The position numbers and the translations under genes were made by a program. A stretch of DNA of 64,000 nt from Polaromonas sp. (lineage in GTDB: Bacteria > Pseudomonadota > Gammaproteobacteria > Burkholderiales > Burkholderiaceae_C), in NCBI RefSeq assembly GCF_013817205.1, contig NZ_JACDDD010000006.1, positions 14,282-78,281 of the forward strand, written 5' to 3'. Shown here in pieces: positions 5,709 to 48,371 of this stretch; positions within the stretch are counted from its first letter, which is position 1, and every line of letters starts with the position of its first letter. The notes under the pieces were generated by a model. It was not told the origin of the DNA and did no database searches. It saw only the letters and a list, made by a program, of their open reading frames with translations.

Positions 5709-5762
5709 TTTTAGGCGTGCAGCCCTTTATTGACGGGCACCAGCAGCTACAGAAATAATAGC
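5709..5762 (+). repeat. 54-bp dispersed repeat, family A, copy 1
   Basis: TTTTAGGC-GTGCA-GCCC-N9-GGGC-N7-GCTA-N9-TAGC. Confidence 0.85.
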
Positions 5763-5784
5763 GAATCGCTCGCGGGCGTGGTGC

Positions 5785-6780
5785 TTAATCGAGCTTGATC
5801 GCCTTTTTTGCAATCAACTCGCCATAGATGGCCGTGTCACTTTTCATTCTCTGCGCCAGTGCGGCAGGGGAGTTGTCTTCAGCTTTCCAGCCCAGAAGAA
5901 AAAGCTTTTGCCGCATCTCACGCGAGCCGAGAATTTTGCCGAGTTCGCTGCTCAGGCGCGCCCGATGAGCCGCCGGCATGCCGGAAGGAGCCATGACCGC
6001 GTTCCAGACTTCGATGTTGGTGGTTTTTGCACCGATCTCCTGCATCGAGGGCAGATCAGGCGCCAGCGGGCTGCGCCTGGCCGAAGTCACCGCCACCGCG
6101 GCGAGCTTGCCTGCTTGTACCAGCGGCATGACGGTTGATCCCGGCAGCAGCGTCATGTGCACTTGTCCGCCCATCATGGCATTGAGGATGGGCGGGCCGC
6201 CACTGAAGGGCACATGCAGGGGCTGGAGTCCCAGCTCTTCCTTGACCAGTTCCATCGCCAGGTGGCCGCCCGAGCCGGCACCGATGGAGCCGTAGGCGAG
6301 CTTGTCGCCGCTGGCGCGGGCCTGCTTGATGAAGTCCGCCGCTGAACCCGTGACCATCGCTTTGGGAGCGACCCAGACCAGCGGGGCCGCGCCTATGAGG
6401 GCGATGGGCGCCAGGTCTTTCAGCGGGTCGTAGGGTAGCTTGGCATAGAGAAATTTGGCGCTGGTCAGCGGGCCGTTGCCGATGACGCCGATGGTGTGGC
6501 CGTCTTCAGCCTTGGCCGTGAGATCGGCGCCGATGTTGCCGCCTGCACCGGGCTTGTTTTCCACAATGACGGACTGCCCCAAGGCTTTGGACAGCGGCTC
6601 GGCCAGCAGGCGCGCCTGCACGTCGGGTGACGAGCCGGCCGGGTAGCCCACGACGATACGCACCGACTTGCTGGGCCACGCAGCAGGTGCTTGCGCAATG
6701 GCTGCCAGTGGCAGCAGCGCAAGGCTCATCAGGGTCAGTCCGGTGCGGGTGATGAAGGCAGGTTTTACGCGGTTGGTCAT
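5785..6780 (-). CDS. Bug/TctC tripartite tricarboxylate transporter substrate-binding protein
   Basis: WPSKSVRIVVGYPAGSSPD, VENKPGAGG, YGSIGAGSGGHL, HVPFSGG. Confidence 0.92.
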   Translation of the reverse strand: MTNRVKPAFITRTGLTLMSLALLPLAAIAQAPAAWPSKSVRIVVGYPAGSSPDVQARLLAEPLSKALGQSVIVENKPGAGGNIGADLTAKAEDGHTIGVIGNGPLTSAKFLYAKLPYDPLKDLAPIALIGAAPLVWVAPKAMVTGSAADFIKQARASGDKLAYGSIGAGSGGHLAMELVKEELGLQPLHVPFSGGPPILNAMMGGQVHMTLLPGSTVMPLVQAGKLAAVAVTSARRSPLAPDLPSMQEIGAKTTNIEVWNAVMAPSGMPAAHRARLSSELGKILGSREMRQKLFLLGWKAEDNSPAALAQRMKSDTAIYGELIAKKAIKLD

Positions 6781-7541
6781 GGTTTGTCTCCTGGTGTTTT
6801 GAATGATTGAAACAGATGCGGGCGTGCCGGTTGGCGCGTGCTCAGGGGGCTGGCCAGCTCGTCCTGTCGGACCTGGCTTTGCAGCTCGAAAAAGGCGGGT
6901 ACCGACACCGGCGCGGCGACGTGCGCAAGCGTTTGCAGCAGCTCGTGTGTGCGGGCCTGCAGGGCGCCACGTTCCAGGCCCTGCAGCATCACGACGAAGT
7001 CTGTGCCGGGGCTGGTGGCCGCGGCTGCATCCGCACGGTTGGCAATCGGAAAACCATCAGAAGCCTCGACAGTTCCCCATTGAGCGCAGACAATGTGGCC
7101 CCGATTCACCAGGCCCTCCAGCACAGAAGCAGCCTGCGCGGAGAAGCGTGCGGAATCGCTGCGCAGATGCACGGTGGCCAGCTGAGTTGCGGTCGATTGG
7201 CCGCAGCTGCCTGACAGCGTGCAAGGCAGCCGCACAAAGTCGCGCAGCTCGGTGCGCATGCGGGCCGACCAGGGCGTGGGGTGGGTGAACACCTCACGGT
7301 ACTGCGCGCTGGCCAGGGCCGCGGTGGACGCCAGCCAGTAGCAGGTGAAGTAGCGGGGCGCTTGCCCCGGTGGTCCGTCAGCATCATGCGAGCGGTAGCG
7401 CCGCGCTTCGATGAAGCCCGGCAGGCCCACGCGCTCGGGTACGTGCTCCAGCGTGTGCCAGGCGTCGTACTCCGGCAGCAACTGCTTGCTGCTGATGCTG
7501 TTCCACAAAGCCAGAAAGGCCTGTGCGCCGGGGTGTGTCAT
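6777..7541 (-). CDS. Hypothetical protein, EthD/DUF4286-like alpha-beta barrel
   Basis: YDAWHTLEHVPERVGLPGF...RRY motif; overlaps both neighbours by 4 nt. Confidence 0.65.
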   Translation of the reverse strand: MTHPGAQAFLALWNSISSKQLLPEYDAWHTLEHVPERVGLPGFIEARRYRSHDADGPPGQAPRYFTCYWLASTAALASAQYREVFTHPTPWSARMRTELRDFVRLPCTLSGSCGQSTATQLATVHLRSDSARFSAQAASVLEGLVNRGHIVCAQWGTVEASDGFPIANRADAAAATSPGTDFVVMLQGLERGALQARTHELLQTLAHVAAPVSVPAFFELQSQVRQDELASPLSTRQPARPHLFQSFKTPGDKP

Positions 7542-8590
7542 GCAGCGCCTTCAGGCTCGGGCTGCACCAGAACCTTGGTGGCGACCTTGCTGCGTGCCAG
7601 CGCAAAGCCTTCGTACGCCTGTGCCAGCGGCAGGCGGTGCGTGATCATGTGGCGCAGGGTTTCCTGGTGGTGGCGCATGAATTCCACCACCTCGGACCAG
7701 GCCTGTTCCGGCGCGCGGTAGGAGCCGCGGATTTGCTGGTGCTGGCGAACCAGCGCCGTCAGGTCAATCGGCACCGGCGCCGCGTGGATGCCGGTGATGA
7801 CCAGAACGCCGTGGGTTTTGAGAGCCCGCAGCGCGGGGCCGATCACGGCGGCAGCGCCGGTGGCTTCGATCACCACATCAAACTTGCCTTCCTCCAGATA
7901 AGGCGCCAGACCTTGTTCCATGCCCAGACCCGCAAAATCAACCAGGGTGTTGAAGCCCATTTTTTTCAGCACGGTCAGCCGTGCGGTATCGCCATGGCCG
8001 GCCACCACCACCTCGCGCGCACCGGCAGCGCGCGCGAACAGGGCAATACCCTGGCCGATGTTGCCGGGGCCGAGCACTAGCACGCGATCGCCCGCCCGAA
8101 CACCGCCGGTGCGCACGGCTTCGTGGCTCACGGTCAGCGGCTCGGTGAGGGCGGCCACTTCAGCGTCCACGCCCGCGGGTATGGGCACGCAGTTGCGCGC
8201 CGGCACGTTTACCCAGGAAGCAAAGCCGCCGTCGCGCGTGACGCCGATGCCGCGCCGCGTGACGCAGGCGTCGGGCTGGCCCGCCAGGCAGGCTTCGCAA
8301 CTGCCGCACACCACCGAGGGCCGTACCGCCACCAGCTGCTGCAGCGCCAAGCCGTCAACCCCTTCGCCCAGGGCGGCAACCTCGCCGCTGAACTCGTGGC
8401 CCACGGTGACCGGCAGCGCGGCCGCTACAAAGTGGTAGCTGGTTGTCCATTCATCAATGTGAAGGTCGGTGCCGCAGACGCCGGCGGACCGAACCTTCAG
8501 CAGAACCTCGCCCGGGCCGGGCGGCGGCGGGCGCGCAATATCCTGGAGCTGCAGGCCGGGGCCTGGTTGAAGTTTGCGAAGGGATTGCAT
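7538..8590 (-). CDS. Zinc-dependent (MDR) dehydrogenase, sorbitol/threonine dehydrogenase-like
   Basis: CGTDLH, GHE, CGSCEAC...C, TEP, GPGNIG. Confidence 0.9.
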   Translation of the reverse strand: MQSLRKLQPGPGLQLQDIARPPPPGPGEVLLKVRSAGVCGTDLHIDEWTTSYHFVAAALPVTVGHEFSGEVAALGEGVDGLALQQLVAVRPSVVCGSCEACLAGQPDACVTRRGIGVTRDGGFASWVNVPARNCVPIPAGVDAEVAALTEPLTVSHEAVRTGGVRAGDRVLVLGPGNIGQGIALFARAAGAREVVVAGHGDTARLTVLKKMGFNTLVDFAGLGMEQGLAPYLEEGKFDVVIEATGAAAVIGPALRALKTHGVLVITGIHAAPVPIDLTALVRQHQQIRGSYRAPEQAWSEVVEFMRHHQETLRHMITHRLPLAQAYEGFALARSKVATKVLVQPEPEGAA

Positions 8591-8660
8591 CAGGGGTCAC
8601 GCCGGTGGAGAAGATGACCGAGTGTCGAATGCTGTGACTCATACGTCAAAGACCGAGTTT

Positions 8661-8686
8661 GTATTTGAAGCATACTTGAAAACTAT
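8661..8686. promoter_or_regulatory. Putative LysR-type boxes
   Basis: GTAT-N7-ATAC-N7-CTAT between the divergent dehydrogenase and LysR genes. Confidence 0.45.
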
Positions 8687-8712
8687 GGCAACCAGGTCAA
8701 GGAGGGCGAGTC

Positions 8713-9651
8713 ATGGAACTGCGGCATTTGCGTTATTTCGTCGGCGTGGCCGAACAGGGCAGCGTCAGCCGTGCTGCTGAAAAACTGTTCATCGCGCAGC
8801 CTGCACTGTCGGCGCAGATCCGCCAGCTGGAAGAGGAACTGGGCGTCAGCCTGTTTGTGCGCTTGCCTCGGGGTGTGCGGCTCACGCAGGCGGGCGAGTC
8901 TTTTCTGGCCGACGCGAAGGCGATTCTGTCGCGTGCCCAGCAAGCTACGGTTCGGGCGCGCGAGCGGCAGTCAGGCCAGCGGGCCACCCTTCGCCTGGGG
9001 CTGGTTCCTTCCACGACGCATTCCGTGCTGCCGGGACTGCTGCAGCGGGTGCGCGACTCAGGTCTGGCCGCCAACATCGAAGCGCGCGAGATGATCACTT
9101 CGCGGCAACTGCTGGCCCTGCACAATGACGAAATCGACCTCGGTTTTGCCCGCCCCGGCGAAGGCAACACGCCGGCGGAAACGGTGGCCGCCATCGACGA
9201 CCCCTATTGCCTGGTCGTGCCCGAGGGCAACGCCTTGGGCGCAAGCCGCGGGCCGCTCGCGCTGAAGCTGGCCGCTCATGAACACTTCGTGAGTTTTTCG
9301 CGTTACCAGGAGGCCGACTACTTTGACCGCACCGCCGCCCTGTGCCTGGAAGCCGGGTTCACGCCCGACATTCGCCACGAAGCGGGCCAGTTCGTCAATG
9401 TCATGGCGCTGGTGGCTTGCGGCCTGGGCGTGGCGATTGTGCCGGCATCGTTTGCCACGCTGCCGTTTGGCCGCGTGGTGTTTCGACGTCTTGAAGCCTC
9501 ACGCTATAAAAGCCAGCTGGTTATTTTGCGGGCGCAGCGTCAAAGCCAGGACGACTGGTCGTCGGAGATGACGCGTTTGGCGGTGGCGGAGCTCAACAGC
9601 CTGGCACAACGACTTGTAGCGGGTCTGGAGCCGAGTTTTACAGTAATTTAG
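8713..9651 (+). CDS. LysR family transcriptional regulator
   Basis: MELRHLRYF...AAEKLFIAQPALSAQIRQLE; GLGVAIVP. Confidence 0.95.
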   Translation: MELRHLRYFVGVAEQGSVSRAAEKLFIAQPALSAQIRQLEEELGVSLFVRLPRGVRLTQAGESFLADAKAILSRAQQATVRARERQSGQRATLRLGLVPSTTHSVLPGLLQRVRDSGLAANIEAREMITSRQLLALHNDEIDLGFARPGEGNTPAETVAAIDDPYCLVVPEGNALGASRGPLALKLAAHEHFVSFSRYQEADYFDRTAALCLEAGFTPDIRHEAGQFVNVMALVACGLGVAIVPASFATLPFGRVVFRRLEASRYKSQLVILRAQRQSQDDWSSEMTRLAVAELNSLAQRLVAGLEPSFTVI

Positions 9652-9699
9652 GCTCGTGGCCCTTATGGGACGGTCGAGAGCAGCTACTGATTTTATAGC
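9647..9699 (+). repeat. Family A repeat, copy 2 (contains the LysR stop codon)
   Basis: TTTAGGC-TCGTG-GCCC-N9-GGTC-N7-GCTA-N9-TAGC. Confidence 0.8.
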
Positions 9700-9726
9700 G
9701 AATGACTGCCCCGGAATAGCCCGCAT

Positions 9727-10617
9727 TCAAGAGTTGCGGGCAGTCTTGAAGGGGTTGAAACCGGTGATCAATGCCGTCGCGGTCAGCACCAGCACGCAGC
9801 CCGGCGCCATGCCCCAGGTGACCGGCTCGCCCAAAAACAGGCCGCCCCAGGCCACACCGAAAAGCGGGATCATGAAGGCGGCCGAGGTGGCTGCGCTGGC
9901 CGGAATCTCGCGCATCAGGCGCATGCTGATCCAGTACATCAGGCCCGAGGTGAAGAGGCCCAGCACCGCCACCGAGATCATCGCGCCGGTGCTGAAGGTC
10001 GCCGTCGGTACGCTGACGCCGGCCGGCACCAGCAGCAGCGCAACCGCCGCCACATGTACTGCGGCTGAAGCGGGCAGGGCGTCGTGCTCAAGTGTCGCGC
10101 GTTTCATCAGGATAGCGCCCACGCCATAGGCAGCGGCGGCGCCGGTGCAGGCCAGTGCGGCCAGCACCACCGGCGTGCTGACGGCCACCGGGCCCAGTTG
10201 CACCAGCAGTGCCACACCGGCAAAACCGATGGCGCAGCCCAGCAGGCGGCGGCCGCTGAGCCTTTCCTCACCCGCAGCGGCGGCCGCCAACACGCCGAAC
10301 AGCGGCGCAGTCGCGTTTAGCACCGCCGAATAACCGGCCGGGATCACCAGCGCGGCCCAATTGAACAGCACAAAGGGCGCGACCACCGTCAGCAGGCTCA
10401 ATAGCGCCAGCCTCGGCCAGGCGGCGCGCGCCGGCCACTTCTGGCGCAGTACCCGCATCAGCACCGCCAGCACCAGTGCCGCCAGCACGCAACGCAGGCC
10501 AGCCAGCAACCAGGGGCCCAGCGCGGGGCTGGCGATGCGCAGCAGCGGAAACGAGCCGCCCCAGAGGGCAGACAGGGCAATCAACTGGATGAAATGACGG
10601 GTTTGCATGGGATGCAA
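9727..10617 (-). CDS. DMT/EamA family transporter
   Basis: LWGGSF, PLFG repeats, about 10 TM segments. Confidence 0.9.
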   Translation of the reverse strand: MHPMQTRHFIQLIALSALWGGSFPLLRIASPALGPWLLAGLRCVLAALVLAVLMRVLRQKWPARAAWPRLALLSLLTVVAPFVLFNWAALVIPAGYSAVLNATAPLFGVLAAAAAGEERLSGRRLLGCAIGFAGVALLVQLGPVAVSTPVVLAALACTGAAAAYGVGAILMKRATLEHDALPASAAVHVAAVALLLVPAGVSVPTATFSTGAMISVAVLGLFTSGLMYWISMRLMREIPASAATSAAFMIPLFGVAWGGLFLGEPVTWGMAPGCVLVLTATALITGFNPFKTARNS

Positions 10618-10703
10618 GGATTGTGCGCGATCCGGTCAGCGGCTGCTGCCACCTCCACCTGCATGCCGGATAATCCCTTCTCACCCACTGAAAGCCTGAG
10701 TCC

Positions 10704-11150
10704 ATGAAAACAATCCTTGTCCTCAATGGTCCCAACCTCAACCTGCTTGGCACACGCGAGCCCGCGGTTTATGGGGCTCAGACGCTCGCTGATGTGGAAG
10801 CCCTGTGCGCAAAGGCCTGCGCGGCCCACGGCTTTTCGCTGGACTTCCGCCAGAGCAACCATGAGGGTGTGCTGGTCGACGCCATCCACGAAGCCGGGCG
10901 CGCCCAGGCGGACGGCACGCTGGCCGGCGTGGTGTTCAACGCCGGCGCCTACACCCACACCAGCGTGGCGCTGCATGACGCCGTCAAGGGCTCGGGCGTG
11001 AGCATGATCGAGCTGCACATCAGCAATGTGCATGCTCGTGAGGCATTTCGCCACCACTCTTATCTCTCGCCGGTCGCCAAGGGCGTGATGGCGGGTTTCG
11101 GTGTGCAGGGTTATGCACTGGCCATCGCCGCGCTGGCCGGCATGGGCTGA
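10704..11150 (+). CDS. aroQ: Type II 3-dehydroquinate dehydratase
   Basis: [48 protein letters not shown]. Confidence 0.97.
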
Positions 11151-11167
11151 CCGGCGCGGATTTTGCC

Positions 11168-11578
11168 ATGTCCACCTTGCCCAAATACCCGGTGGACGAG
11201 CGCGAGGTCGAGTTCAGCGCGATACGCGCACAGGGCGCTGGCGGGCAGAACGTCAACAAGGTGTCCAGCGCGATTCATTTGCGCTTTGACATCATGGCCT
11301 CCTCGCTGCCCGAGCAGATTCGCGAACGGCTGATGTGCCTGAGCGACAGCCGGATCACGCAGGAAGGTGTGTTTGTGCTGAAAGCGCAGCAGCACCGCAC
11401 CCAGGAGATGAACCGCGCAGACGCGCTGGCCCGCTTGCAGGAAGTCATTGATAGCGTGTCGGTGCCGCAAAAGGCACGGCGCGCCACCAAGCCGACCTAT
11501 GGCTCGAAGCAGCGGCGCCTGGCCGGCAAGAGCCAGCGATCCGAAATCAAGAGTTCGCGCGGAAAAGTCAGCGAATAG
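11168..11578 (+). CDS. arfB: Alternative ribosome-rescue peptidyl-tRNA hydrolase
   Basis: GAGGQNVNKV GGQ motif, basic tail RRATKPTYGSKQRRL. Confidence 0.95.
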   Translation: MSTLPKYPVDEREVEFSAIRAQGAGGQNVNKVSSAIHLRFDIMASSLPEQIRERLMCLSDSRITQEGVFVLKAQQHRTQEMNRADALARLQEVIDSVSVPQKARRATKPTYGSKQRRLAGKSQRSEIKSSRGKVSE

Positions 11579-11602
11579 GCCGCTTCACCGAAGTTCATGA
11601 TG

Positions 11603-11656
11603 TTTTGAGGCTCCAGCCCTCGTGGTACGGGCGTAAGTAGCTATCAAAACAATAGC
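11603..11656 (+). repeat. Family A repeat, copy 3
   Basis: TTTTGAGGC-TCCA-GCCC-N9-GGGC-N7-GCTA-N9-TAGC. Confidence 0.85.
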
Positions 11657-11702
11657 TATGTTGTGTGCCGATAATTGTGGTTTCGTGACTGGAGCCCATG
11701 AC

Positions 11703-12380
11703 ATGCCCGACCTTCCTCTTTCGTTTTTGCATCGTCCTGCAGATCCGTCGATTGCCGCGCCCTGGTTGTTGGTGCTGATGCACGGCGTGGGCAGCAACGA
11801 AAAAGACCTGTTCGGCCTCGCGCCTTATGTGCCGGAGAACTTTCATGTGCTCAGCCTGCGCGCACCGTACGCCATGGGAGCAGCAGCCTATGGCTGGTTT
11901 GCCTTCACCGTCGATGCCCGGGGCGAGCGAACCATCAACGAGGCCCAGGAAGCCGCCAGCCGGGGCGTCGTTGCGGCAACCCTTGCCGCCGCAGCGCAGC
12001 ACCTGGGCATTCCATCAGAGCGGGTGGTCGCCGGCGGTTTCAGCCAGGGCGGCATCATGGCGCTGTCGCTGCTGCTCACTCAACCGTATTTGATGCACGC
12101 CGCCATGGTGATGCACAGCCGCCTGCTGCAACAGGTTGTCGCGCTGGTGGCCCCGGCTGAGGATCTGCAAGGCAAAAAGCTCTGGCTCAGCCATGGCACG
12201 CACGACAACGTGATTCCGCTGGCTGCGGCGCATGTGATCCGGGGTTTGGTGAAGAAGTTGCCGCTTGAACTGACTTACGCCGAGTATCCGAGCGCGCACG
12301 AGATTGTTCAGGAGGAATTGAGGGCGGCGATGGCGTGGTTGCAGGGGCTGTTTGCAGTCCCCGCGGATTTGATGAAGTGA
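11703..12380 (+). CDS. Phospholipase/carboxylesterase (alpha/beta hydrolase)
   Basis: HGVGSN, GGFSQGG nucleophile, HGTHDNVI, HEI. Confidence 0.9.
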   Translation: MPDLPLSFLHRPADPSIAAPWLLVLMHGVGSNEKDLFGLAPYVPENFHVLSLRAPYAMGAAAYGWFAFTVDARGERTINEAQEAASRGVVAATLAAAAQHLGIPSERVVAGGFSQGGIMALSLLLTQPYLMHAAMVMHSRLLQQVVALVAPAEDLQGKKLWLSHGTHDNVIPLAAAHVIRGLVKKLPLELTYAEYPSAHEIVQEELRAAMAWLQGLFAVPADLMK

Positions 12381-12462
12381 CACTGCCGGCCTTCCTTTTT
12401 TATGGAAGACGTGCCCGCTGACGGCTACAACTGCTGGTCCGCAAACGCCCGCATCGGTGGGG

Positions 12463-12960
12463 CTACTTGGCAGCCTTCGCCTCGGCGATGGACTGTGCCA
12501 TGATAGCTTTCATTTTTTCCATCATGGGCGCCATGCGTACTTGCATGATGCTCATGGATTTTTCCATGACCACCGGCATCTTCCGGACGAATGCCTCGCC
12601 TGCGGGGCTTTGGTAGAAAGCAATCAGGCCGTTTATCTCTTCCTGTGTGAAACTTTCCTGGTAAATCTGGATATAGATGGGGCGCATCCTGGGCCAGTTC
12701 ATTTCTTCGCGCATGACCTGGATGAACTTGGCAGGCGCCGCGTCCAGAATGCGCATCTGTTGCGCCGAAAGCTTTTCTCCTGGGATGGCCGCCATCATGG
12801 ACTGGCGCATGGACTGCTCCATGTTCACAAACAGAGTGTCCATGACCGTGTCGGTTTTGGTGACGGCAAGAAGGGTGTGGATCGACGCTTCGCTCGGTGG
12901 CGCACAGTGGGCCGCGCAGGAAAAAGTGAAACAAGCGAAAAGAGCGATGATTTGACGCAT
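12463..12960 (-). CDS. DUF2059-family exported protein
   Basis: Signal peptide; IYQESFTQEEINGLIAFYQSPAG. Confidence 0.8.
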   Translation of the reverse strand: MRQIIALFACFTFSCAAHCAPPSEASIHTLLAVTKTDTVMDTLFVNMEQSMRQSMMAAIPGEKLSAQQMRILDAAPAKFIQVMREEMNWPRMRPIYIQIYQESFTQEEINGLIAFYQSPAGEAFVRKMPVVMEKSMSIMQVRMAPMMEKMKAIMAQSIAEAKAAK

Positions 12961-13039
12961 GAGTGGCTCCGGCAGGCGGTGAAGGTTTGTGCTCGGGCGT
13001 GTTGTTGTCCGCGAAAATGCCAACAAGGGCCCTGCCATT

Positions 13040-13855: not shown

Positions 13856-13873
13856 GCGGCAGCCGGCGCCGCG

Positions 13874-16846
<2,973 letters not shown>

Positions 16847-16947
16847 GACGAGGGACTTTCTAATGCCGTTCGCCATGAGCTTGTCGAAGGGTGCCATTAA
16901 AGAGGCAAGCTTCGACAGGCGCAGCCCGAACGGGGTGGAGAGGTGGT

Positions 16948-17316: not shown

Positions 17317-17354
17317 GGTCTTCTCCATTGAGTAAAAGTTGAAAGATGAAAATT

Positions 17355-18569: not shown

Positions 18570-18620
18570 AGGCGTTCTCCGGGGGCAAATAGACAACATG
18601 GCCATCAAACCATGGGCTGC

Positions 18621-18836: not shown

Positions 18837-18858
18837 CAAGTGTAGCTGAAGGCCCGCC

Positions 18859-22211: not shown

Positions 22212-22631
22212 ATGAAAATAGAGATTCCCGAGAGCAAGAAGCTGGTCTTCGAGATGCGCCTGCCGATCCGCTGGGGCGACATGGATGCGATGGGCCATGT
22301 CAATAACGCCAGCTATTTCCGTTATCTGGAAACAGTGCGCATCGACTGGATGTATTCCATCGGCTGCGTGCCAGACCCGAAAGGCGAGGGCCCGGTCATC
22401 GTCAATGCCTTCTGCAATTTCTACAAACAACTGCAGTACCCAGGCGATGTGCTGGTCAAGATGTACGCCAGCGACCCGGGCCGCACAACGTTCGAAACCT
22501 GGGGCACGATGGAGCGCTCCGACCAGCCCGGTGTGATTTGCGCCGCTGGCGGCGCCACCACCATCTGGATAGACTTCCCGAGCCAGAAGGCCAAAACATT
22601 GCCTGCTTGGCTGCGTTCTCTCGTCACTTGA
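22212..22631 (+). CDS. Acyl-CoA thioesterase (4HBT hotdog fold)
   Basis: RWGDMDAMGHVNNASY. Confidence 0.92.
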   Translation: MKIEIPESKKLVFEMRLPIRWGDMDAMGHVNNASYFRYLETVRIDWMYSIGCVPDPKGEGPVIVNAFCNFYKQLQYPGDVLVKMYASDPGRTTFETWGTMERSDQPGVICAAGGATTIWIDFPSQKAKTLPAWLRSLVT

Positions 22632-22672
22632 AGCGAAATCGGCACTCCGCCCTTCATTTACGGCAATAGTTT

Positions 22673-22689
22673 GCTATAAAAAGAGTAGC
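22673..22689. repeat. Family A terminal box only
   Basis: GCTA-TAAAAAGAG-TAGC with degenerate flanks. Confidence 0.5.
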
Positions 22690-22717
22690 AAAAGAACTGT
22701 CTTGAATGGTACGGTGC

Positions 22718-23104
22718 TCAGGCTAAACCGGACCTGTCGGAAGTCTTGGCAGGGCGGGCCTTGCGCAGAAGCAGCACCGCCGCCGGGGGAAAGACCAGCC
22801 AGAACCCCGAGGCTGGCATCAGCACCACGCCCACGCACCCCAATACCAGCAAGGCCCAGCCAATTGGTTTCAGGGCCTGGGTGGCGTGTTGCTTTTCAAG
22901 TGCGGCAACCGTCAGACCCAGCATAAACAGCCCCGCACCGAACAGCACAAACCAGGTTGCTGCCGCGCGCTGCGGATCTCCAGCAATGCTGTTGTAAAAG
23001 CCGCGGCCCGCGATGTCGAGCAGCGGTCCGCCGTACTTCCAGGGGGCATACACGGTGTGCAGCAGCGCGATGGCCATCAGGCAGCGGCCGATGGATATCT
23101 TCAT
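22718..23104 (-). CDS. Small membrane protein (DUF6463-like)
   Basis: ALLHT...WFVLFG...MPASGFWL; overlaps upstream gene by 4 nt. Confidence 0.65.
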   Translation of the reverse strand: MKISIGRCLMAIALLHTVYAPWKYGGPLLDIAGRGFYNSIAGDPQRAAATWFVLFGAGLFMLGLTVAALEKQHATQALKPIGWALLVLGCVGVVLMPASGFWLVFPPAAVLLLRKARPAKTSDRSGLA

Positions 23105-23949
23105 GGTGTTTCTACGCTGGTTTTGCCAACGGCGCGCCATTGACCGGCCAGGGCGTCGCCGCTATCGCCGGTGGCGCTGGTTGCGTCGGATGGAGGCCCG
23201 CCAGGATGAAAACCCGGTTTGAAGTAAGCCAGCAAGGGCAGGGTGCAGCGCCAAGCTACGCCGTCCCGTCCGAAGAAAAAGGTTGTGGCGCTCCACCACG
23301 TGCTGGGCTTGAATAGCGACTTGTCTCGCCACAGGTTGAGCGTCGTCTGCACGCCGGCGTCCAGCGAGAACAAGACCAAAACGTAGGCAAACCAGAGCGA
23401 GCGGCGCAAGGTGCCGCCACCCAGGGCCTGGTACACGTCAAAGGCGACGGCCCTGTGCTCGGTTTCTTCAACCGCGTGCCAGCGCCACAGCGTGCGCATC
23501 TTCGGTTCAGCTGCGTCAAACCAACTGGGGTATCGCAAGGTGCCTTCGGCAAATACGGCGGTGCAATGCTCATACGCGGCCGTGATGGCCAGGTGGTGCA
23601 ACACATGCAGCCTGCGCGATTGTTCAATCCGCCAGGTGGCAAGACGGGCCCAGATGTTGCTGAGGCCCTGCTTTTCCAGCTGGGCGTTGTACAGCCCGTG
23701 CACATGCCGGTGCGTGGCCTCCTGGCCAATGAAGCCGCGGACCAGATCGTGCAATGGCTGGTGGACGGCATCTTGCGGCAGCAGCGCGGCTCCGGCGCGC
23801 ACCGAGTCCATAAAGTATTGCTCACCGACCGGGAAACTCATGGACAGCGCGATGTAGTACTGGCTGCGAAATGCGTCGCCCCCATGCCAGTGGCGGGCAA
23901 ACCCACCGGACAGGTCGATATTGAGCTTGCGAATGGTGAGTGTTGTCAT
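23101..23949 (-). CDS. So-called metal-dependent hydrolase family protein with diiron-type ExxH motifs
   Basis: SMSFPVGEQYF, QEATH, EHCTA, WHAVEETEH. Confidence 0.8.
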   Translation of the reverse strand: MTTLTIRKLNIDLSGGFARHWHGGDAFRSQYYIALSMSFPVGEQYFMDSVRAGAALLPQDAVHQPLHDLVRGFIGQEATHRHVHGLYNAQLEKQGLSNIWARLATWRIEQSRRLHVLHHLAITAAYEHCTAVFAEGTLRYPSWFDAAEPKMRTLWRWHAVEETEHRAVAFDVYQALGGGTLRRSLWFAYVLVLFSLDAGVQTTLNLWRDKSLFKPSTWWSATTFFFGRDGVAWRCTLPLLAYFKPGFHPGGPPSDATSATGDSGDALAGQWRAVGKTSVETP

Positions 23950-28360: not shown

Positions 28361-28454
28361 CGATCGGCTTGATGGGGGTGGCGATCCCCAAAGCGCTGCC
28401 AAGCGGTGAGCAATCGCGCGGCGTTATGCTGGCGGTTTCATTTTGGAGAGACCC

Positions 28455-28832
28455 ATGAACGCGGCATATGACAAAGGCTTGGCCACACGCAAGCAGGTGA
28501 TGGGCGAAGACTTCGTAGCCAACGCTTTGGGCAATGCCACGGATTTCACGCGGCCGATCCAGGAGCACATTACCGCCAAGGCCTGGGGAGATGTCTGGCA
28601 GCGGCCCGGCCTGGACTTGAAGACGCGCAGCCTGATCACTGTGGCGATGCTGACGGCGCTGGGCAAGCAGCATGAACTCAAGGGTCATTTGCGCGGCGCC
28701 TTGAACAACGGCGCCACACCGGCCGAGCTTCAGGAAGTGCTGCTCCATGCCGCCGTTTACTGCGGCGTGCCAACCGCTGTGGACGCTTTCAGGACGGCGG
28801 CAGAAGTGGTAGACGGACCGAAGAATGCCTGA
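28455..28832 (+). CDS. Carboxymuconolactone decarboxylase family protein
   Basis: AWGDVWQRPGLDLKTRSLIT, HAAVYCGVP. Confidence 0.9.
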   Translation: MNAAYDKGLATRKQVMGEDFVANALGNATDFTRPIQEHITAKAWGDVWQRPGLDLKTRSLITVAMLTALGKQHELKGHLRGALNNGATPAELQEVLLHAAVYCGVPTAVDAFRTAAEVVDGPKNA

Positions 28833-28877
28833 CGCCGGCAGTTACGGCCCATTTCTCCGAATTCAAATATTTTAGTG

Positions 28878-28931
28878 TTTTAGGCCTCTAGCCCTTACGC
28901 AGCGGGCGTGAACAGCTATTGAAAACATAGC
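28878..28931 (+). repeat. Family A repeat, copy 4
   Basis: TTTTAGGC-CTCTA-GCCC-N9-GGGC-N7-GCTA-N9-TAGC. Confidence 0.9.
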
Positions 28932-28945
28932 ATCGAGGAGCCGGC

Positions 28946-29500
28946 TCAACCTTCCATCAGCTTGTGCACCAGGTCGGCAGTGGTGGACGCCTTGTACTTG
29001 CGCATCAGGCGGGCGCGGTAAATCTCTACGGTGCGGTGGCTGATGACCAGCGCGCGGCCGATTTCCTTGGAGGTCATGCCGTCCATCAGGTGCGCGGCGA
29101 CTTCGCGTTCGCGCGCCGTCAACTCAGCCTTGACCGGCCTGCGTGAGCTCAGGTCCTCAAAGGTCCAGATGCCGGACTCGTGCGGCGCGGCGCGGTTGAG
29201 CGCGCGGCCTGTGACGTGGCACCAGAAAGTCTCGCCCTTCAAGCGCCCGTCCACCCGTTTCATGATGCGGTCGTCGGCGTAGTGGCCCTTGGCATTGAGA
29301 ATGGGCAACATGCGCGCGCCTATGCGCTCGTACTCGGCGGCGCTGGGGTAGAGGACCTGGAAAGACTGGCCGATGAGCTGCTCGTGCGTAGCGCCAAACA
29401 TCTCGCAGAGGTGCTGGTTGCAGTCGACGATGCCGCGGTTGCGTGACAGCACCAGCCCGACCGGCGCCATGTTGAAGGCCAGACGGTAATCAATGTCCAT
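28946..29500 (-). CDS. PAS-LuxR(HTH) transcriptional regulator
   Basis: PAS (CNQHLCEMFG...LIGQSF); LTAREREV...TSKEIGRALVISHRTVEIYR. Confidence 0.9.
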   Translation of the reverse strand: MDIDYRLAFNMAPVGLVLSRNRGIVDCNQHLCEMFGATHEQLIGQSFQVLYPSAAEYERIGARMLPILNAKGHYADDRIMKRVDGRLKGETFWCHVTGRALNRAAPHESGIWTFEDLSSRRPVKAELTAREREVAAHLMDGMTSKEIGRALVISHRTVEIYRARLMRKYKASTTADLVHKLMEG

Positions 29501-29608
29501 CGGGTCGGTAAGAGGCACAGGGTTAAACTTTAGGGGTAACTACGTATGCGGATAGGTAGTATCGTACGGTTTTGACGTGTGTGTTGGAAGTTCTTCAGGA
29601 GATTTTTT

Positions 29609-31146: not shown

Positions 31147-31595
31147 TCAGGGCCGCAGATAGGCCCAGCCGTCCTGCTGTTTCTTCATGATCTCCGTCAC
31201 ACCCGCAGGCACGTAGGCGATGGTGGGCAACATGTCGTCTTTGCCCAGCTTCTGGCCGCGCATCGTGTTCTCGCAGGCCACGACACGCACATTGGCTTTC
31301 GTAGCGTCGGCGACCCGTGCACCAGTCGGCGAGTCCATCTTCAGCATGCCGATACCGGGTCCATAGGCGACGATGGCGATATCCACGTTGGCGGCGCCCA
31401 CGTCGTCCTGCACGTTCTTCGCGTTGTTCAGGGCGAGGTTCCATTTGGCCGGGTCGTTGTCGCTGACCTGGATCACAATTTTATGACGTTTTTGGCCTGT
31501 AGCCCCCGCCCCTTGTGCGTGAGTAGCTATCAAAAACGGAGCAGACAGGGCGGCGGCGCCGACCATGCCGACTTGAAGAAGCATTCTGCGGTTCA

Positions 31596-31599
<4 letters not shown>
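31147..31599 (-). CDS. DsrE-family protein with Tat-like signal
   Basis: NRRMLL signal, VAYGPGI, VVACENTM, YVPAGV; ATGA overlap with gabD. Confidence 0.85.
31489..31542 (+). repeat. Family A repeat, copy 5, inside the DsrE coding sequence
   Basis: TTTTTGGC-CTGTA-GCCC-N9-GTGC-N7-GCTA-N9-GAGC; antisense reads APFLIATHAQGAGATGQK. Confidence 0.75.
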
Positions 31600-33074
<1,475 letters not shown>

Positions 33075-43371: not shown

Positions 43372-45996
43372 ATGAATCAACCCACCTTCACCGTCGCCGA
43401 TATCCGCAAAAGTTTCCTGGACTTTTTTGCATCCAAGGGCCACACCGTGGTGGCGTCCAGCTCGCTGGTGCCGGGTAATGATCCGACCTTGATGTTCACC
43501 AACTCGGGCATGGTGCAGTTCAAGGATGTGTTTCTAGGCAACGACAAACGCCCGTATGTGCGCGCCGCCTCGGTGCAGGCCTGCCTGCGTGCTGGCGGCA
43601 AACACAACGACCTGGAAAACGTGGGCTACACCGCGCGCCACCACACCTTTTTTGAGATGCTGGGCAACTGGAGCTTTGGCGACTATTTCAAGCGTGAATC
43701 GCTGAAGTGGGCCTGGGAGCTGTTGACCGAGGTTTACAAGCTGCCGCCCGAGCGCCTGCTGGCCACCGTGTACGAAGAGGACGACGAGGCCTACGACATC
43801 TGGACCAAAGAAATCGGCCTGCCGCCTGAGCGCGTGATCCGCATCGGCGACAACAAGGGCGGCCGCTACAAGTCCGACAACTTCTGGATGATGGCCGACA
43901 CCGGCCCCTGCGGCCCCTGCAGCGAAATTTTTTATGACCACGGCGACCACATCCCCGGCGGCCCGCCGGGTAGCCCAGATGAAGATGGCGACCGCTTCAT
44001 TGAAATCTGGAACAACGTGTTCATGCAGTTCGACATGGCGGCTGACGGTAGCGTCACCAAACTGCCAGCGCCTTGCGTGGACACCGGCATGGGGCTGGAG
44101 CGTCTGGCTGCCATCTTGCAGCACGTGCACAGCAACTATGAGATCGACATCTTTGCAGAGTTGATCAAGGCGGCATCACGCGAGACCGGCGAAAAAGACC
44201 TGGGCAACAAGAGCCTGTTCGTGATTGCCGATCACATTAGGGCCACAGCCTTTTTGGTGAGTGACGGCGTCAACCCGTCCAACGAAGGCCGCGGCTACGT
44301 ACAGCGCCGCATCATCCGCCGCGCGATTCGCCATGGCTACAAGCTTGGAAAAAAGACGCCGTTCTTCCACAAGCTGGTGGCCGATCTGGTCAAGCTGATG
44401 GGCGACGCCTATCCGCGCTTGAAGTCTGATGAAAAGCGCATCACCGAAGTCCTGCGGGTTGAAGAAGAGCGCTTTTTTGAGACGCTGGAAATCGGTATGA
44501 CGATTTTGGACGCAGCCCTTGTGGGTGATGCCAAAGTGTTGCCCGGCGACGTGGCATTCAAGTTGCACGACACCTATGGCTTTCCACTTGATCTGTCGGC
44601 CGATGTCTGCCGCGAGCGTGGGCTGGAGGTTGACGAGGCAGGCTTTCATGCTGCCATGGACAAACAGAAAAATCAGGCGCGCGCTGCAGGCAAGTTCAAG
44701 ATGGATCGCGCGCTGGAGTATTCAGGTGAAGGTCATGCGTTCACCGGCTACGAGCTGCTCGAAGAGCCTGCCAAGGTAGTGGCCTTGTACGCCGACGGTG
44801 TGGCCGTGCAAAGCCTGAATGCAGGGCAGAGCGGGGTCGTGGTTCTGAGCACCACCCCGTTTTATGCCGAGAGCGGTGGCCAAATCGGAGATCAGGGGCG
44901 TTTGACGGCATCCGGTGCAAGTTTTGCGGTGGATGACACTCTGAAAATCAAGGCCGACGTGTTTGGTCATCACGGCACGCAGCAAGAGGGAGTGCTCAAG
45001 GTAGGCGATACAGTCACGGCGCAAGTCAACACCGCTGTGCGCGCGGCCACGGTGCGCAACCACAGCGCCACCCATTTGATGCACAAGGCCTTGCGCGAAG
45101 TGCTCGGTGATCACGTTCAGCAAAAGGGCAGCCTGGTCAATGCCGAGCGCACCCGATTTGACTTTGCACACAACGCGCCGGTGACGGATGCGCAGATTCG
45201 CGAGATTGAGGCACGTGTCAACGCGGAAATTTTGTCCAACGTGGCCACCGATGCGAGCGAAATGGACATGGAGTCTGCGCAAAAGAGCGGCGCCATGATG
45301 CTGTTTGGCGAGAAGTATGGCGACAAGGTGCGTGTGCTCAGCATAGGCTCCAGCAAGGAGCTGTGCGGCGGTACCCACGTCGGACGCACCGGCGACATTG
45401 GCCTGTTCAAGATCGTTGCAGAGAGCGGTGTGGCCGCCGGCGTGCGCCGCGTGGAAGCTGTAACGGGTGACAACGCGTTGGCCTACGTGCAGGAGCTCGA
45501 AGCGCTCAGCGCAGCGATGAGTGGCTACCTTAAGGCCTCGCGAGGCGAACACTTGAGCCGTGTCGCGCAAGTGTTGGACCAAGTCCGCACGCTGGAAAAA
45601 GAAGTGGCCGCGCTCAAGGGCAAGCTGGCTTCGTCACAGGGTGATGAATTGATGTCGCAAGCAGTCGACATCAAGGGTCTCAAAGTTCTGGCTGCGAAGC
45701 TGGAAGGCGCTGACGCCAGGACCCTGCGCGAGACCATGGACAAACTGAAAGACAAGCTCAAGACGGCTGTCATCGTGCTGGCCGCGGTGGACGGAGACAA
45801 GGTGCAAATCGCAGCCGGTGTGACAGCCGACAGCGTGGGCAAGGTCAAGGCCGGAGAACTGGTCAACTTTGTGGCGCAACAAGTCGGCGGCAAGGGTGGC
45901 GGCAAAGCCGACATGGCCATGGCCGGCGGTACAGACGCTTCCCGCTTGCCAGCTGCGCTGCAGTCGGTACAAGCTTGGGTGGCCGAGCGGGCGTGA
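43372..45996 (+). CDS. alaS: Alanine--tRNA ligase
   Basis: [47 protein letters not shown]. Confidence 0.98.
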
Positions 45997-46016
45997 AATA
46001 GTGATGGTACCTCTCT

Positions 46017-46070
46017 GCTATAAAAATAATAGCTGGTAGCCCCCGTGAATACTGGGCTGAAGGCCATTTT
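46017..46070 (-). repeat. Family A repeat, copy 6, overlapping the start of the next gene
   Basis: Reverse complement: AAAATGGC-CTTCA-GCCC-N9-GGGG-N7-GCTA-N9-TAGC. Confidence 0.8.
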
Positions 46071-46902
46071 TGTTGTCAACTTGCTGCTGGCAGCGCTGCC
46101 AGGCGCCGCCGCACCGCGCGAGGTGTTCTTTGACAGCCTGGATGGCACCGTGATCAAGGCTTGGGTGTTCCAGCCCGAGGACAAGCTCGTAAAAGGCACC
46201 GTCAAAGGCACTGTGATTGCGCTGCACGGATGCGGCGGTCTCTACGCCAACGGTGGCCGCAACAAGGGCCAGTTCAATGCGCGACATCAGGCCATGGCCG
46301 ATCTGCTGGTTGCTGAGGGTTACACCGCCGTGTTTCCCGACAGCTTTACGCCGCGCGGCGAGTCCTCGATATGTGTCCAGAAAATCGGCACGCGCAAGAT
46401 TGACCAGAGTGAGCGCCGGGCCGACACCCTGGCCACGCTCGACTGGGTTGCCGCCCAGCCATGGGGGCAGGCCAAATACACGGCCTTGCTGGGCTGGTCT
46501 CACGGCGGCAGCGCCGTGCTGGCCGCCACCGACATGGCACGCGCCGATGTCAGTCGCCGCCCAGTGCAGCCCGCTGTTGGCATTGCGTTTTATCCCGGCT
46601 GCAGCGCAGCGCTGAAATCAGGCTACCGCGTGGGCGCGCCCTTGGTGATGATGCTGGCCGAAAAAGACGACTGGACGCCACCTGCGCCCTGCATCGAGCT
46701 GGGCAAGGCGGTTGGCGCTGAGGTTAACGTCTACCCCGACAGCTATCACGACTTTGACTCGCCCACAGGCCGCGTGCAATTGCGCAAGGACGTGCCCAAT
46801 GGCGTCAATCCGGGGCAGGGCGTTCACGCTGGCCCCAACCCGGCAGCGCGCGAGGCGGCTTATACACGCCTGCGCGAGGTTCTGCAAAAAAACCTGCAGT
46901 AA
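46045..46902 (+). CDS. Dienelactone hydrolase family protein, probably exported
   Basis: ALHGCGG, GWSHGG, FYPGC, EKDDWT, YHDFD; signal peptide. Confidence 0.88.
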   Translation: MNTGLKAIFVVNLLLAALPGAAAPREVFFDSLDGTVIKAWVFQPEDKLVKGTVKGTVIALHGCGGLYANGGRNKGQFNARHQAMADLLVAEGYTAVFPDSFTPRGESSICVQKIGTRKIDQSERRADTLATLDWVAAQPWGQAKYTALLGWSHGGSAVLAATDMARADVSRRPVQPAVGIAFYPGCSAALKSGYRVGAPLVMMLAEKDDWTPPAPCIELGKAVGAEVNVYPDSYHDFDSPTGRVQLRKDVPNGVNPGQGVHAGPNPAAREAAYTRLREVLQKNLQ

Positions 46903-47409: not shown

Positions 47410-47512
47410 GGGCTTCTCCTGAAAACGGTTGAACGAAATTCAGGGCGCACGAGTCTGCAGCCCGCCACAAGCCGGCGCGCAAGCACCAGCCCGCAGCAGG
47501 GGCCGAAAACAC

Positions 47513-47664
47513 GCGCTCTCTTTCATCCGGACTGTGACCGTCGGCTTCGGGATTGAACCGAATCTGCTGACCCTGGCTTGCGGGAGCAAGCCAGGCGCTC
47601 GCGGGCTGATGCGTTTTGAATGCAAACACCGCCGGTGGGGAATTTCGCCCCGCCCTGAGAACGC
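47513..47664 (-). ncRNA. FMN riboswitch
   Basis: TCTCAGGGCGGGGCGAAATTCCCCACCGGCGGT...AGCCCGCGAGCGC...GTCAGCAGA...CCGACGGTCACAGTCCGGATGAAAGAGAG. Confidence 0.97.
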
Positions 47665-47766
47665 TGTGCCGGCGTAGTGGCCGACACGCATGAAGTTTAA
47701 GCGCTGTCCGAAACCCGGAGCTGCGCCCGGGCTATTGAATGATGTCTGCCATTTGAAAGCTGTGGC

Positions 47767-47808
47767 GCCGTCCTTGCAAGGGGGAGGAGGCGAAGCCTCC
47801 ACGGGGTG
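47767..47808 (+). repeat. Possible partial relative of family B
   Basis: GCCGTCCTTGCAAGGGGGA-GGAGGC[GAA]GCCTCC-ACGGGGTG; similar G-run, GNA hairpin, GGGG order. Confidence 0.4.
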
Positions 47809-47811
47809 TGC

Positions 47812-48276
47812 TTATTCCAGTTCGGCAATCATTTCAATCTCGACGCAGGCGCCCATGGGAATCTGCGCCACGCCAAATGCAGCGCGGGCATGGGCACCCC
47901 TGGCACCAAAGACGTCGCCGAACAGGTCGCTGGCACCGTTGGTCACCAGATGGTGTTCGGTGAAGTCAGCGGTGGAGTTGACGAGGCTCACCAGTTTGAC
48001 GATGCGTTTGACCTTGCCAAGGTCGCCGACCGCCGCGTGCAGCGTGCCCATCAGATCAATCGCAACCGCGCGCGCCGCTGCCTTGCCCTCGTCGGTCGTC
48101 ATGTTTTTGCCGAGCTGGCCGACCCATGGCTTGCCGTCTTTTTTGGCAATGTGCCCGCTCAGAAACACCAGCTTGCCGGTCTGCACAAAGGGCAGGTAGG
48201 CAGCGGCCGGCACGGCCACAGGCGGCAAGGTGATGCCCATGGTCTTGAGTTTGTCGTAAATCGGGGTGGTGCTCAT
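47812..48276 (-). CDS. RidA/YjgF family protein
   Basis: AAAYLPF...VFLSGH, GAHARAAFG, VEIE. Confidence 0.9.
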   Translation of the reverse strand: MSTTPIYDKLKTMGITLPPVAVPAAAYLPFVQTGKLVFLSGHIAKKDGKPWVGQLGKNMTTDEGKAAARAVAIDLMGTLHAAVGDLGKVKRIVKLVSLVNSTADFTEHHLVTNGASDLFGDVFGARGAHARAAFGVAQIPMGACVEIEMIAELE

Positions 48277-48317
48277 GGGAGTCTCCTGGTGCGGCAACAG
48301 GGTGCCGGTTGATGAAG

Positions 48318-48371
48318 AAAAAGGCCGCCAGCCCTTGACTGGCGGGCGAAAGCAGCTATTAAAAGAGTAGC
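48318..48371 (+). repeat. Family A repeat, copy 7
   Basis: AAAAAGGC-CGCCA-GCCC-N9-GGGC-N7-GCTA-N9-TAGC. Confidence 0.85.

Follow-up and report, generated by a model that had tools for sequence, protein, structure and literature searches.

Uptake sequences, namely the uptake signal sequences (USS) of Pasteurellaceae and the DNA uptake sequences (DUS) of Neisseriaceae (PMC2817400, PMC3630211), are in behaviour the closest described counterparts of the element treated here, a motif of about 72 bp that we analysed in a 64,000-nt stretch of Polaromonas DNA (the window) and throughout the genome to which it belongs. The window lies on contig C104 of a 3.77-Mb assembly with 62% G+C, which was assigned to Polaromonas by PurL similarity (91% identity to P. 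eurypsychrophila). The motif shares with USS and DUS a dispersed distribution (hundreds to thousands of copies) over both strands, a frequent position at gene 3′ ends, a fraction of a third to two thirds in coding regions with preferred frames, an apparent origin by substitution and not by insertion, and lineage-specific dialects that are conserved within a genome. It differs from them in size and complexity, having ~72 bp, 60 bits and five boxes where they have a 9–12 bp core (up to ~30 bp with flanks), and in density (1 per 6.8 kb versus ~1 per 1.2 kb). It also uses non-preferred, AT-ending codons, and two motif-rich genomes lack an intact comEC.

A second group of relatives is the repetitive extragenic palindromes (REP) and the composite BIME and REPIN elements built from them. 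Like these, the motif is small, has a high copy number, lies mostly 3′ of genes and between convergent or unidirectional open reading frames (ORFs) with some copies in genes, and is accompanied in the genome by a gene resembling those of REP-associated tyrosine transposases (RAYT) (PMC3733652). Unlike these, it lacks a stable palindromic stem and a conserved GTAG or CGTC tag, its copies do not form near-identical clusters, and they do not flank the RAYT-like gene. REPs are tagged palindromes, and the published intragenic ones are insertions that add 20–30 residues (PMC3733652), whereas most of the in-gene motif copies that we tested add none.

Two further repeats are known from the same bacteria. 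In Polaromonas naphthalenivorans CJ2, Tong et al. reported 125 copies of the spaced pair ATAGCT(N)22CAAAAG, mostly intergenic near gene ends, 14% in genes and without a known function, in a study of counts and locations only; Rhodoferax ferrireducens had the most spaced pairs of 569 genomes, a fact left unexplained there (PMC5217627). That pair resembles the present motif in genus, in its ATAGCT box and in having a fixed spacer of variable sequence, but its geometry is different: our genome holds one ATAGCT(N)22CAAAAG and 103 matches to ATAGCT-N32-ATTTG, the form that the present motif takes in reverse complement. Judged by these sequences, the published pair is probably a sister dialect or a related family. 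The BRE repeats of Polaromonas and other Comamonadaceae also have some copies in coding sequences, but they are ~90 bp long, 69% G+C, arranged in tandem as a variable-number repeat and limited to at most 29 copies per genome (PMC3110155), a description that sets them apart from a motif that is AT-enriched (0.42–0.55 G+C), single and present in ~550 copies.

A rigid multi-box motif in some 550 copies

A preliminary description of the window had listed seven copies of the pattern GCCC-N9-GGGC-N7-GCTA-N9-TAGC and a lone box at 22673. All eight were recovered both by a search with the four-box pattern and by direct reading of the sequence. With up to two mismatches the pattern has nine matches in the window against a chance expectation of 0.08, a count that none of 100 shuffles reached, and a sequence-only covariance model built from genome copies gave eight strong copies and one degenerate copy (Table 1). 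The copy missing from the earlier list lies within gcvP. Genome-wide, 109 sites match the four boxes exactly with spacers of 9, 7 and 9, while any other spacer combination yields 0–1 matches, except for 10 sites with 11/5 in which the total length is unchanged. The constant spacer length proposed from seven copies is thus a property of the whole genome. The extrapolation to hundreds of copies was equally sound: an nhmmer search (E<0.01) with a profile built from the strict copies found 553, of which 284 are on the plus and 269 on the minus strand, or ~1 per 6.8 kb.

The box geometry of the originally proposed 54-bp unit stands, but the true conserved unit is ~72 bp, as TT and CAAAT.GGCCTCCA extend it upstream of GCCC. 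Its consensus is TT-N4-g.CAAAT.GGCCTCCAGCCC-N11-GCG-N5-AGCTAY-N7-RTAGCA, in which the N7 is A/T-rich. The element is asymmetric, AT-enriched and marked by phased A/T tracts, and it carries ~60 bits over 72 bp relative to the genome background. Its boxes are not equally strict, the exact form being present in 88% (GCCC), 86% (GCTA), 76% (TAGC) and 40% (GGGC) of the 553 copies. The invariant part of the third box is GCG at +15..+17, preceded by variable bases (CGGGCG in 164 copies, CAAGCG in 57 and TGGGCG in 35, among others). Two 17-bp inverted boxes around a 7-bp core, as at recombinase sites, had been suggested as the architecture; this did not survive the census, since the first palindrome is not conserved: GGGC is exact in 40% of copies here, and other genera have AAGC or ATGC in its place. 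This 'palindrome' is thus a local peculiarity that does not define the element.

Five pairs of copies stand head to head with a nearly constant anchor spacing of 85–93 bp, each pair forming an intergenic palindrome of ~170 bp (Table 1), which may represent a dimeric binding arrangement. A composite element suggested by three motif pairs spaced 425–429 bp apart was rejected because their interiors are unrelated.

With crude gene calls based on G+C at third codon positions (GC3; 3,330 ORFs, 87% coverage), 345 of the 553 copies are intergenic, 191 lie wholly within ORFs and 17 are at contig edges. The intergenic ones are over-represented between convergent genes (119) and scarce between divergent ones (31), two classes of similar total length. 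Stop codons of neighbouring genes cluster within ~50 bp of both motif edges, whatever the orientation of the motif, and in some genes the GCTA box itself gives the TAG stop on the opposite strand.

The short distance (below ~50 bp) of most intergenic copies from stop codons, together with two short self-complementary boxes that could make small hairpins, is what one would expect of a transcribed element that acts as RNA, whether as a terminator, a stabiliser of mRNA 3′ ends or a small RNA. The copies themselves argue against this. Covariation in the two proposed stems, measured in an ungapped alignment of 100 copies, is lower than in 497–499 of 500 shuffles. The stems are only 4–5 bp long, the inner pairs of the first are unpaired in 32–37% of copies, and a change in one partner breaks the pair with no compensation. 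Only adjacent columns, such as those of AAA versus TTT tracts, share much mutual information, and none was found at long range. Folding of four window copies on both strands gave z-scores from +0.5 to −2.2, with a structure that differs from copy to copy and is no better than that of shuffled sequence. Rfam at gathering thresholds returned an FMN riboswitch, two glycine riboswitch aptamers and a tRNA, with nothing at motif copies, and a scan of window positions 1–20000 found no terminator-like site or T-run at a copy. Moreover, the first 'stem' is missing in 60% of copies and in other genera, and both orientations relative to neighbouring genes are common. An RNA role is therefore very unlikely. 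The absence of compensatory changes and of long-range mutual information, folding at the level of shuffled sequence and nearly equal orientations all favour recognition of duplex DNA over an RNA hairpin, as the preliminary description had supposed.

Overprinted genes and dialects

Rickettsia palindromic elements (RPE) are in-frame repeats in functional protein genes, palindromic insertions that add a peptide segment. The present motif likewise forms in-frame repeats inside functional protein genes (RPE are cited in PMC3733652), but it differs in mostly recoding native residues in place. An RPE-like in-frame insertion was our first reading of the in-gene copies and was dropped after alignment of PurK and PurL.

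A reading frame with high GC3 runs on both sides of in-gene copies, and GC3 is 0.46 inside the element versus 0.78–0.79 in its flanks (n=147 copies deep within genes). One frame is preferred in each orientation, by 84 of 114 sense and 57 of 77 antisense copies. The preferred sense frame reads ..N.a.Ala.RAQaAI..IA.. and the antisense frame ..AinsIAa.Ar.trA.gqFDa; where the frame would put TAG in phase, the box turns into GAGC. In PurK, the motif lies over a native helix of the ATP-grasp domain (..AYEGNMPSALAQRARTATKLIANHIGYVGV..), with no length difference among the 24 Polaromonas genomes (of 27) whose sequences align over the full length. Motif-bearing species write this helix as GCC CTT GCA CAG CGG GCG CGA ACA GCT ACG AAA TTG ATA GCA, and six motif-free species (genomes G007, G044, G018, G010, G020 and G043) encode homologous residues with ordinary GC-rich codons. 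GcvP behaves in the same way: the window protein matches the Pfam GDC-P domain over residues 38–465, against profile positions 2–429, so that no insertion is present, and at the site that bears the motif in G116, G051 and G068 the motif-free G049 has ordinary sequence of equal length. More generally, Pfam spans differ from their profiles by 0–6 residues for ATP-grasp, ECH_2, YhhN, GcvP and NIF3, whereas a full element corresponds to 22–24. Among 30 in-gene copies with a paralogue spanning the site, none shows a gap of 21–23 residues and 20 have a net gap of 3 or less. In TilS, MCC-beta, a TrpD-like protein, MutS, PepN and a DadA-like protein, the motif occupies the same codons in five Polaromonas species with no motif indels.

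A few sites weigh against such length-neutral overprinting. The loop of a TrmJ/SpoU-like protein is 60 nt (20 codons) longer with the motif than in motif-free G044, and matches to AMP-binding_C and HemD are 15 and 16 residues longer than their profiles. Insertion, or the growth of variable loops, has thus taken place as well, and some copies may have an ancient mobile origin. Several copies lie in inter-domain linkers, as in MutL, DnaX and AceE. Taken together, most of the tested in-gene copies overprint native codons, and a minority is associated with loop expansion.

The codons themselves tell the same story. In columns with a conserved amino acid, the codon is identical in all genomes in 58% of cases within the motif (GC3 0.39) but in 35% in the flanks (GC3 0.83; p=5.5e-4), a difference showing that the DNA itself is constrained, against codon bias.

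The motif is a family trait with a patchy distribution. Within Polaromonas, strict copies number 0 to 148 per genome. In the GTDB family to which the genome belongs, the sequence-only model has matches in 52 of 121 genera, with at least 41 matches each in about 25 of them, and the family genomes comprise ~30 that are motif-rich and 69 that are motif-free. The same PurL site bears the motif in Polaromonas, Acidovorax temperans, A. facilis and Candidatus Aalborgicola. PurL also holds a second in-gene copy (L001:3201-3270, on our contig C96; 55.7 bits) in another variable segment, common to P. eurypsychrophila, Candidatus Aalborgicola and others, and several relatives have a copy just 3′ of the purL stop codon.

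With a chimeric query, orthologous sites in PurL, PurK, GcvP, ECH and NIF3 were retrieved from six genomes outside the genus. Five of these genomes are motif-rich and have the motif at the same codons at most of the five sites, and motif-free G049 has ordinary sequence, with the same length in PurK and GcvP. The form of the motif varies with the host. The third box is CGGGCG here, ATATGCGTGAG in G116 and CAAGCGCT(A/G)GC in G068 and G155; dialects are also listed as CGGGCG, CAAGCGCT or ATATGCG, with three dialects in four other genera. The PurL, PurK and ECH sites follow the dialect of their host and the protein changes along with it, PurK having CGG GCG CGA (RAR) here, AAA GCG CTG (KAL) in G068 and CAA GCG CTG (QAL) in G155. 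As read from these alignments, the dialects rule out simple inheritance of old insertions, because the same codons have shifted together with hundreds of other loci. Gene conversion between ectopic copies appears unlikely, since the longest identical runs shared in the alignment are only 8–12 bp, short for the homology that conversion requires.

Intergenic copies are less fixed in position than in-gene copies. At the PurK site of the low-copy genome G018, the motif-type residues (SIAS) are now written in GC-rich codons, and the TrmJ-like loop is short in G018 and G015. These sites look like the outcome of decay after loss of whatever maintains the motif.

None of the marks of recent mobility was found. 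Among 441 full-length copies, the nearest neighbour differs on average at 20.2 of 72 positions versus 22.0 ± 0.09 in column-shuffled sets, and the most similar pair in the genome at 12 of 72. The copies are thus nearly independent draws from one position-weight matrix, unlike populations of REPINs or of miniature inverted-repeat transposable elements (MITEs). Left and right flank columns are uncorrelated, giving no sign of target duplication. The ends (TT..CAAAT and ATAGCA) are not inverted repeats, a REP-type stem of at least 5 bp with compensatory changes is absent from the motif, and a GTAG (or CGTC) end tag is not conserved: the consensus is ATAGC, with G before TAGC in 40 and C after GCTA in 22 of the 109 strict copies. 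Most orthologous motif-free sites have equal length, one loop differing by 60 nt. When the motif was reduced to a stringent 24-base version, the genome gave 48 matches and 2.9 million viral contigs (IMG/VR) gave 0. The genome does encode one RAYT-like protein (Y1_Tnp, PF01797; C109:19919-20617). The nearest motif copy is 6.7 kb away from its gene, so a search for a co-distributed RAYT, as had been proposed, returned a candidate and a weak co-distribution but no flanking copies. RAYT-like genes are present in 26 of 30 motif-rich and 38 of 69 motif-free genomes across the genera of the family (p=0.003, uncorrected for phylogeny), and four motif-rich genomes have none.

There is no ongoing transposition or recent copying of the motif, and the suggestion of a MITE/REP-like element lacks support on three counts: no near-identical copies, length neutrality of most tested in-gene copies and an unflanked RAYT-like gene. 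An older history is a separate matter. A REP- or MITE-like element could have been spread long ago by a transposase such as a RAYT-like Y1 enzyme and now be immobile, its boxes kept by host use. The REP-like placement 3′ of genes and between convergent or tandem genes (PMC3733652), the few in-gene copies that add 15–20 codons relative to orthologues or profiles, the higher frequency of RAYT-like genes in motif-rich genomes and the fixed 85–93 bp spacing of the five head-to-head pairs would all agree with such an origin. We nevertheless consider it improbable. The motif has neither a stem of 5 bp nor compensatory changes, and its tag is ATAGC, not GTAG; flank correlations that would point to target duplication are as absent as near-identical copies; the many in-gene copies without added length are inexplicable by insertion; and the orthologous copies that track genome-specific dialects would have had to be inserted anew at the same codons, lineage by lineage. 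Between the RAYT-like gene and the nearest copy lie 6.7 kb, and such a gene is also present in 38 motif-free genomes.

Proposed recognition of the motif and possible advantage of its copies

We propose, with a probability of about 0.6 for the explanation as a whole, that a putative lineage-specific, trans-acting DNA-binding factor reads a ~72-bp asymmetric signal in duplex DNA. The factor would probably be a multimer that touches four or five short boxes and the phased A/T tracts along one stretch of helix. Base substitution in situ would maintain and retune the copies and at least partly create them, both in coding sequence and in the intergenic DNA near gene 3′ ends, with DNA that matches the preference of the factor being favoured. 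Recognition of duplex DNA by such a factor is suggested by the rigid geometry, the combination of boxes with free spacers, the A/T tracts, the lack of pairing, the use of both strands, the conservation of sites and the dialects. That the motif is a trans-recognised signal maintained in place is highly probable; that its reader is a protein, and that drive or selection provides the advantage, we infer.

Two sources of advantage can be envisaged. The one we prefer is a molecular drive like that of DNA uptake sequences, in which transmission or repair is biased copy by copy; the other is that binding itself is directly selected, for instance binding by an architectural or topological chromosome protein. 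Our preference for drive rests on two considerations: selection on one of ~550 redundant sites, each of which should matter little, appears insufficient for the recoding of conserved enzymes, and the whole motif family has disappeared from close relatives without obvious harm.

Whether such drive would be of the uptake-sequence kind specifically is a more tentative matter, to which, arguing by analogy, we give somewhat less than an even chance. Over-representation on both strands (284/269), coding copies, frame bias, length-neutral overprinting and dialects uniform within a genome are all features that USS and DUS have and that we found in the motif; a short core of 9–12 bp at ~1 per kb is a feature of theirs that the motif lacks. 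We know of no report of natural competence or uptake specificity in these genera. Several further observations weigh against uptake. The motif exceeds any known uptake sequence several-fold in length (about six times), and its density is about seven times lower. Preferred codons are favoured by the frames of USS (PMC2817400), non-preferred ones by the motif. ComEC (PF03772) is found in 114 of 121 family genomes, our own included, and so does not discriminate. The motif-rich genome G109, which is 100% complete, has no match to the Competence domain, and in the motif-rich closed genome G052 comEC is spread over three frames (C1:1836740-1837544), probably as a frameshifted pseudogene.

The window itself ends in comEC/rec2, a 951-aa ORF from position 62672 to 64000 that continues to C104:79805, with its Pfam Competence domain at C104:78030-78944 (window position 63749 onward). 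An antisense motif copy lies within it just past the window end (C104:78501-78563).

Uptake sequences are absent from genes that have no homologues in relatives (PMC2817400) and from recently acquired genes (PMC2817400, PMC3630211). A possible parallel is the only contig above 20 kb without a motif copy, the 36-kb C70 (35,952 bp), which ends in what appears by eye to be an integrase-led island. Its first part holds ribosomal protein genes and rpoB/rpoC; its second part begins with an apparent P4-type integrase and continues with large hypothetical helicase-like genes of lower GC3, again as judged by eye, and may be a recently acquired island.

The main rival to drive has the copies bound by a chromosome protein that shapes the chromosome or manages its topology, for example a nucleoid-associated tetramer, or acting as strong gyrase or topoisomerase sites, and kept by purifying selection with no transmission bias. 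A multi-box geometry over 54–72 bp with phased A/T tracts would suit such a protein, as would the enrichment at 3′ ends and between convergent genes. So would the spacing, with one copy per 5.5–6.8 kb, a coefficient of variation of 0.85, a scarcity of pairs less than 500 bp apart (3% versus 8.7% expected), a single gap above 25 kb and the single copy-free contig above 20 kb, and the finding that the stringent pattern has 48 matches in the genome and none in 2.9 million viral contigs. Yet the spacing is near random (mean 5.5 kb), and its statistics are largely explained by the intergenic preference of the motif. Selection on one of ~550 redundant sites would also hardly outweigh the amino-acid and codon costs in conserved enzymes, and the repeated loss of the whole family among close relatives counts equally against it. 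We judge this rival less likely than not. Both the nucleoid-organising site and the DNA-uptake bias that the preliminary description had named remain live candidates.

A polar signal that orients the chromosome or directs recombination, of the Chi or KOPS type, is most improbable. As far as is known, polar signals are short and strongly skewed. The motif has nearly equal strand counts (284/269), and its orientation is weakly associated with local GC skew (166/118 vs 129/140). This concordance amounts to only ~55% here and is non-significant where skew is strong. In the closed genome G155, a split at the midpoint gives 6+/14− versus 18+/6− (p=0.006), which would favour polarity, but the split does not match the replichores defined by skew (11+/12− vs 13+/8−).

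In G155 (3.36 Mb), the orientation of copies switches near 1.55 and 3.05 Mb and the sign of GC skew changes near 0.5 and 2.1 Mb, so that the two are about a quarter-turn out of phase. The split could be due to chance or to a domain-scale effect.

A more radical variant of maintenance in place would be sequence-directed rewriting, in which a trans factor recognises near-matches and biases repair, recombination or templated conversion toward its preferred 72-bp sequence. Hundreds of loci, codons of conserved enzymes included, would then be overwritten and retuned together as the specificity of the factor drifts, and the chromosome would possess a 'dialect' engine distinct from both transposition and DNA uptake. 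We see only a slim chance that this is so.

Were the proposed recognition by a trans-acting factor correct, the Comamonadaceae, a large and ecologically important freshwater and soil family (here Polaromonas, Acidovorax and, by a named metagenome-assembled genome, Candidatus Aalborgicola), would carry a signal exceptional in both length and information content, whose strength suffices for recoding conserved enzymes against their codon bias and for altering amino acids in step with the dialect. Such a signal raises the questions of which protein reads 72 bp, whether these bacteria have self-specific DNA uptake or another transmission bias, and how far protein evolution follows DNA-level signals and not protein function. 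In practice, the motif confounds the annotation of genes and repeats, where it looks like a MITE, and could serve as a lineage marker and as bait for identifying the factor.

Motif copies and other features of the window

Table 1. Copies of the 72-bp motif in the window (window coordinates) and head-to-head pairs elsewhere in the genome (contig coordinates).
Feature	Position	Strand	Score or basis
Copy filling the 97-bp gap between convergent genes (4428..5687 +, 5785..6780 −)	5698..5766	+	40.1 bits; exact 4-box pattern
Copy at the end of a LysR-type regulator gene (8713..9651), overlapping its stop codon and abutting 9727..10617 (−) at the 3′ end of the latter	9635..9703	+	42.1 bits
Copy shortly past the stop codon of an ArfB-like GGQ protein gene (11168..11578)	11593..11656	+	48.2 bits
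Copy in gcvP (13874..16897, −), antisense to the gene, over native codons (aa 420–435)	15593..15636	+	30.5 bits
Degenerate copy ('lone box') between convergent genes 22212..22631 and 22718..23140	22630..22692	+	15.1 bits, E=0.0011; 2 mismatches to 4-box pattern
Copy between a convergent CMD-family gene (28443..28832 +) and PAS-LuxR regulator gene (28946..29518 −)	28867..28933	+	50.6 bits; Pfam for both ORFs
Copy antisense in the 5′ part of a DsrE-like ORF (31147..31620, −)	31478..31544	+	38.7 bits
Copy in the 48-bp gap 3′ of alaS (43372..45996) that overlaps the start predicted for a gene of the dienelactone-hydrolase family (46045..46902)	46016..46081	−	40.4 bits
Top-scoring window copy, antisense in the N-terminal extension of a YjgF/RidA-like ORF (47812..48471, −)	48309..48374	+	53.8 bits
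Head-to-head pairs	C144:12502-12672; C36:47843-48018; C7:846-1020; C82:90017-90196; C87:25633-25808	both	Anchor spacing 85–93 bp

The first copy of the window has counterparts right behind the stop codon of the orthologous gene in G009, G006, G008, G011 and G023. Across this gene and its orthologues, six species retain the 3′ copy with conserved boxes and differing spacers. A promoter scan gave a promoter-like match within this copy, which is accounted for by the AT-rich spacers. The gene whose stop codon is overlapped by the second copy matches Pfam HTH_1 and LysR_substrate. Downstream of the ArfB-like gene, relatives have a copy at differing offsets, inverted in G045, and this indicates, as far as the compared sequences go, a turnover of intergenic copies.

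Three copies lie at the 5′ ends of predicted genes. In the DsrE-like ORF, the Pfam domain begins at aa 47 and the motif spans aa 25–47, upstream of the domain, so that this copy is either part of a coded N-terminal extension or 5′ untranslated DNA. The YjgF/RidA-like ORF has its domain from aa 74 and the motif over aa 32–54. The third copy follows alaS, whose ORF matches Pfam tRNA-synt_2c, and reaches into a gene in which the Pfam DLH domain starts at aa 79.

Ordinary Rfam and ARAGORN matches in the window are an FMN riboswitch at 47511–47666 (−), a tandem glycine riboswitch that precedes the gcv genes at 18616–18840 (−) and a tRNA-Gly(CCC) at 31024–31097 (−). The window also has another palindromic element, which is G+C-rich, at 14508–14579 in gcvP (also 14540–14554) and at 18150–18222; it consists of GCCCCCCGAGGGGGC and then TGTTTTT. 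It is unrelated to the 72-bp motif and may be the published BRE or a similar in-frame repeat. Pro/Gly/Arg-rich inserts akin to it are present in an acyl-CoA synthetase on contig C76 and, in G008, 3′ of the orthologue of the gene at 4428..5687.

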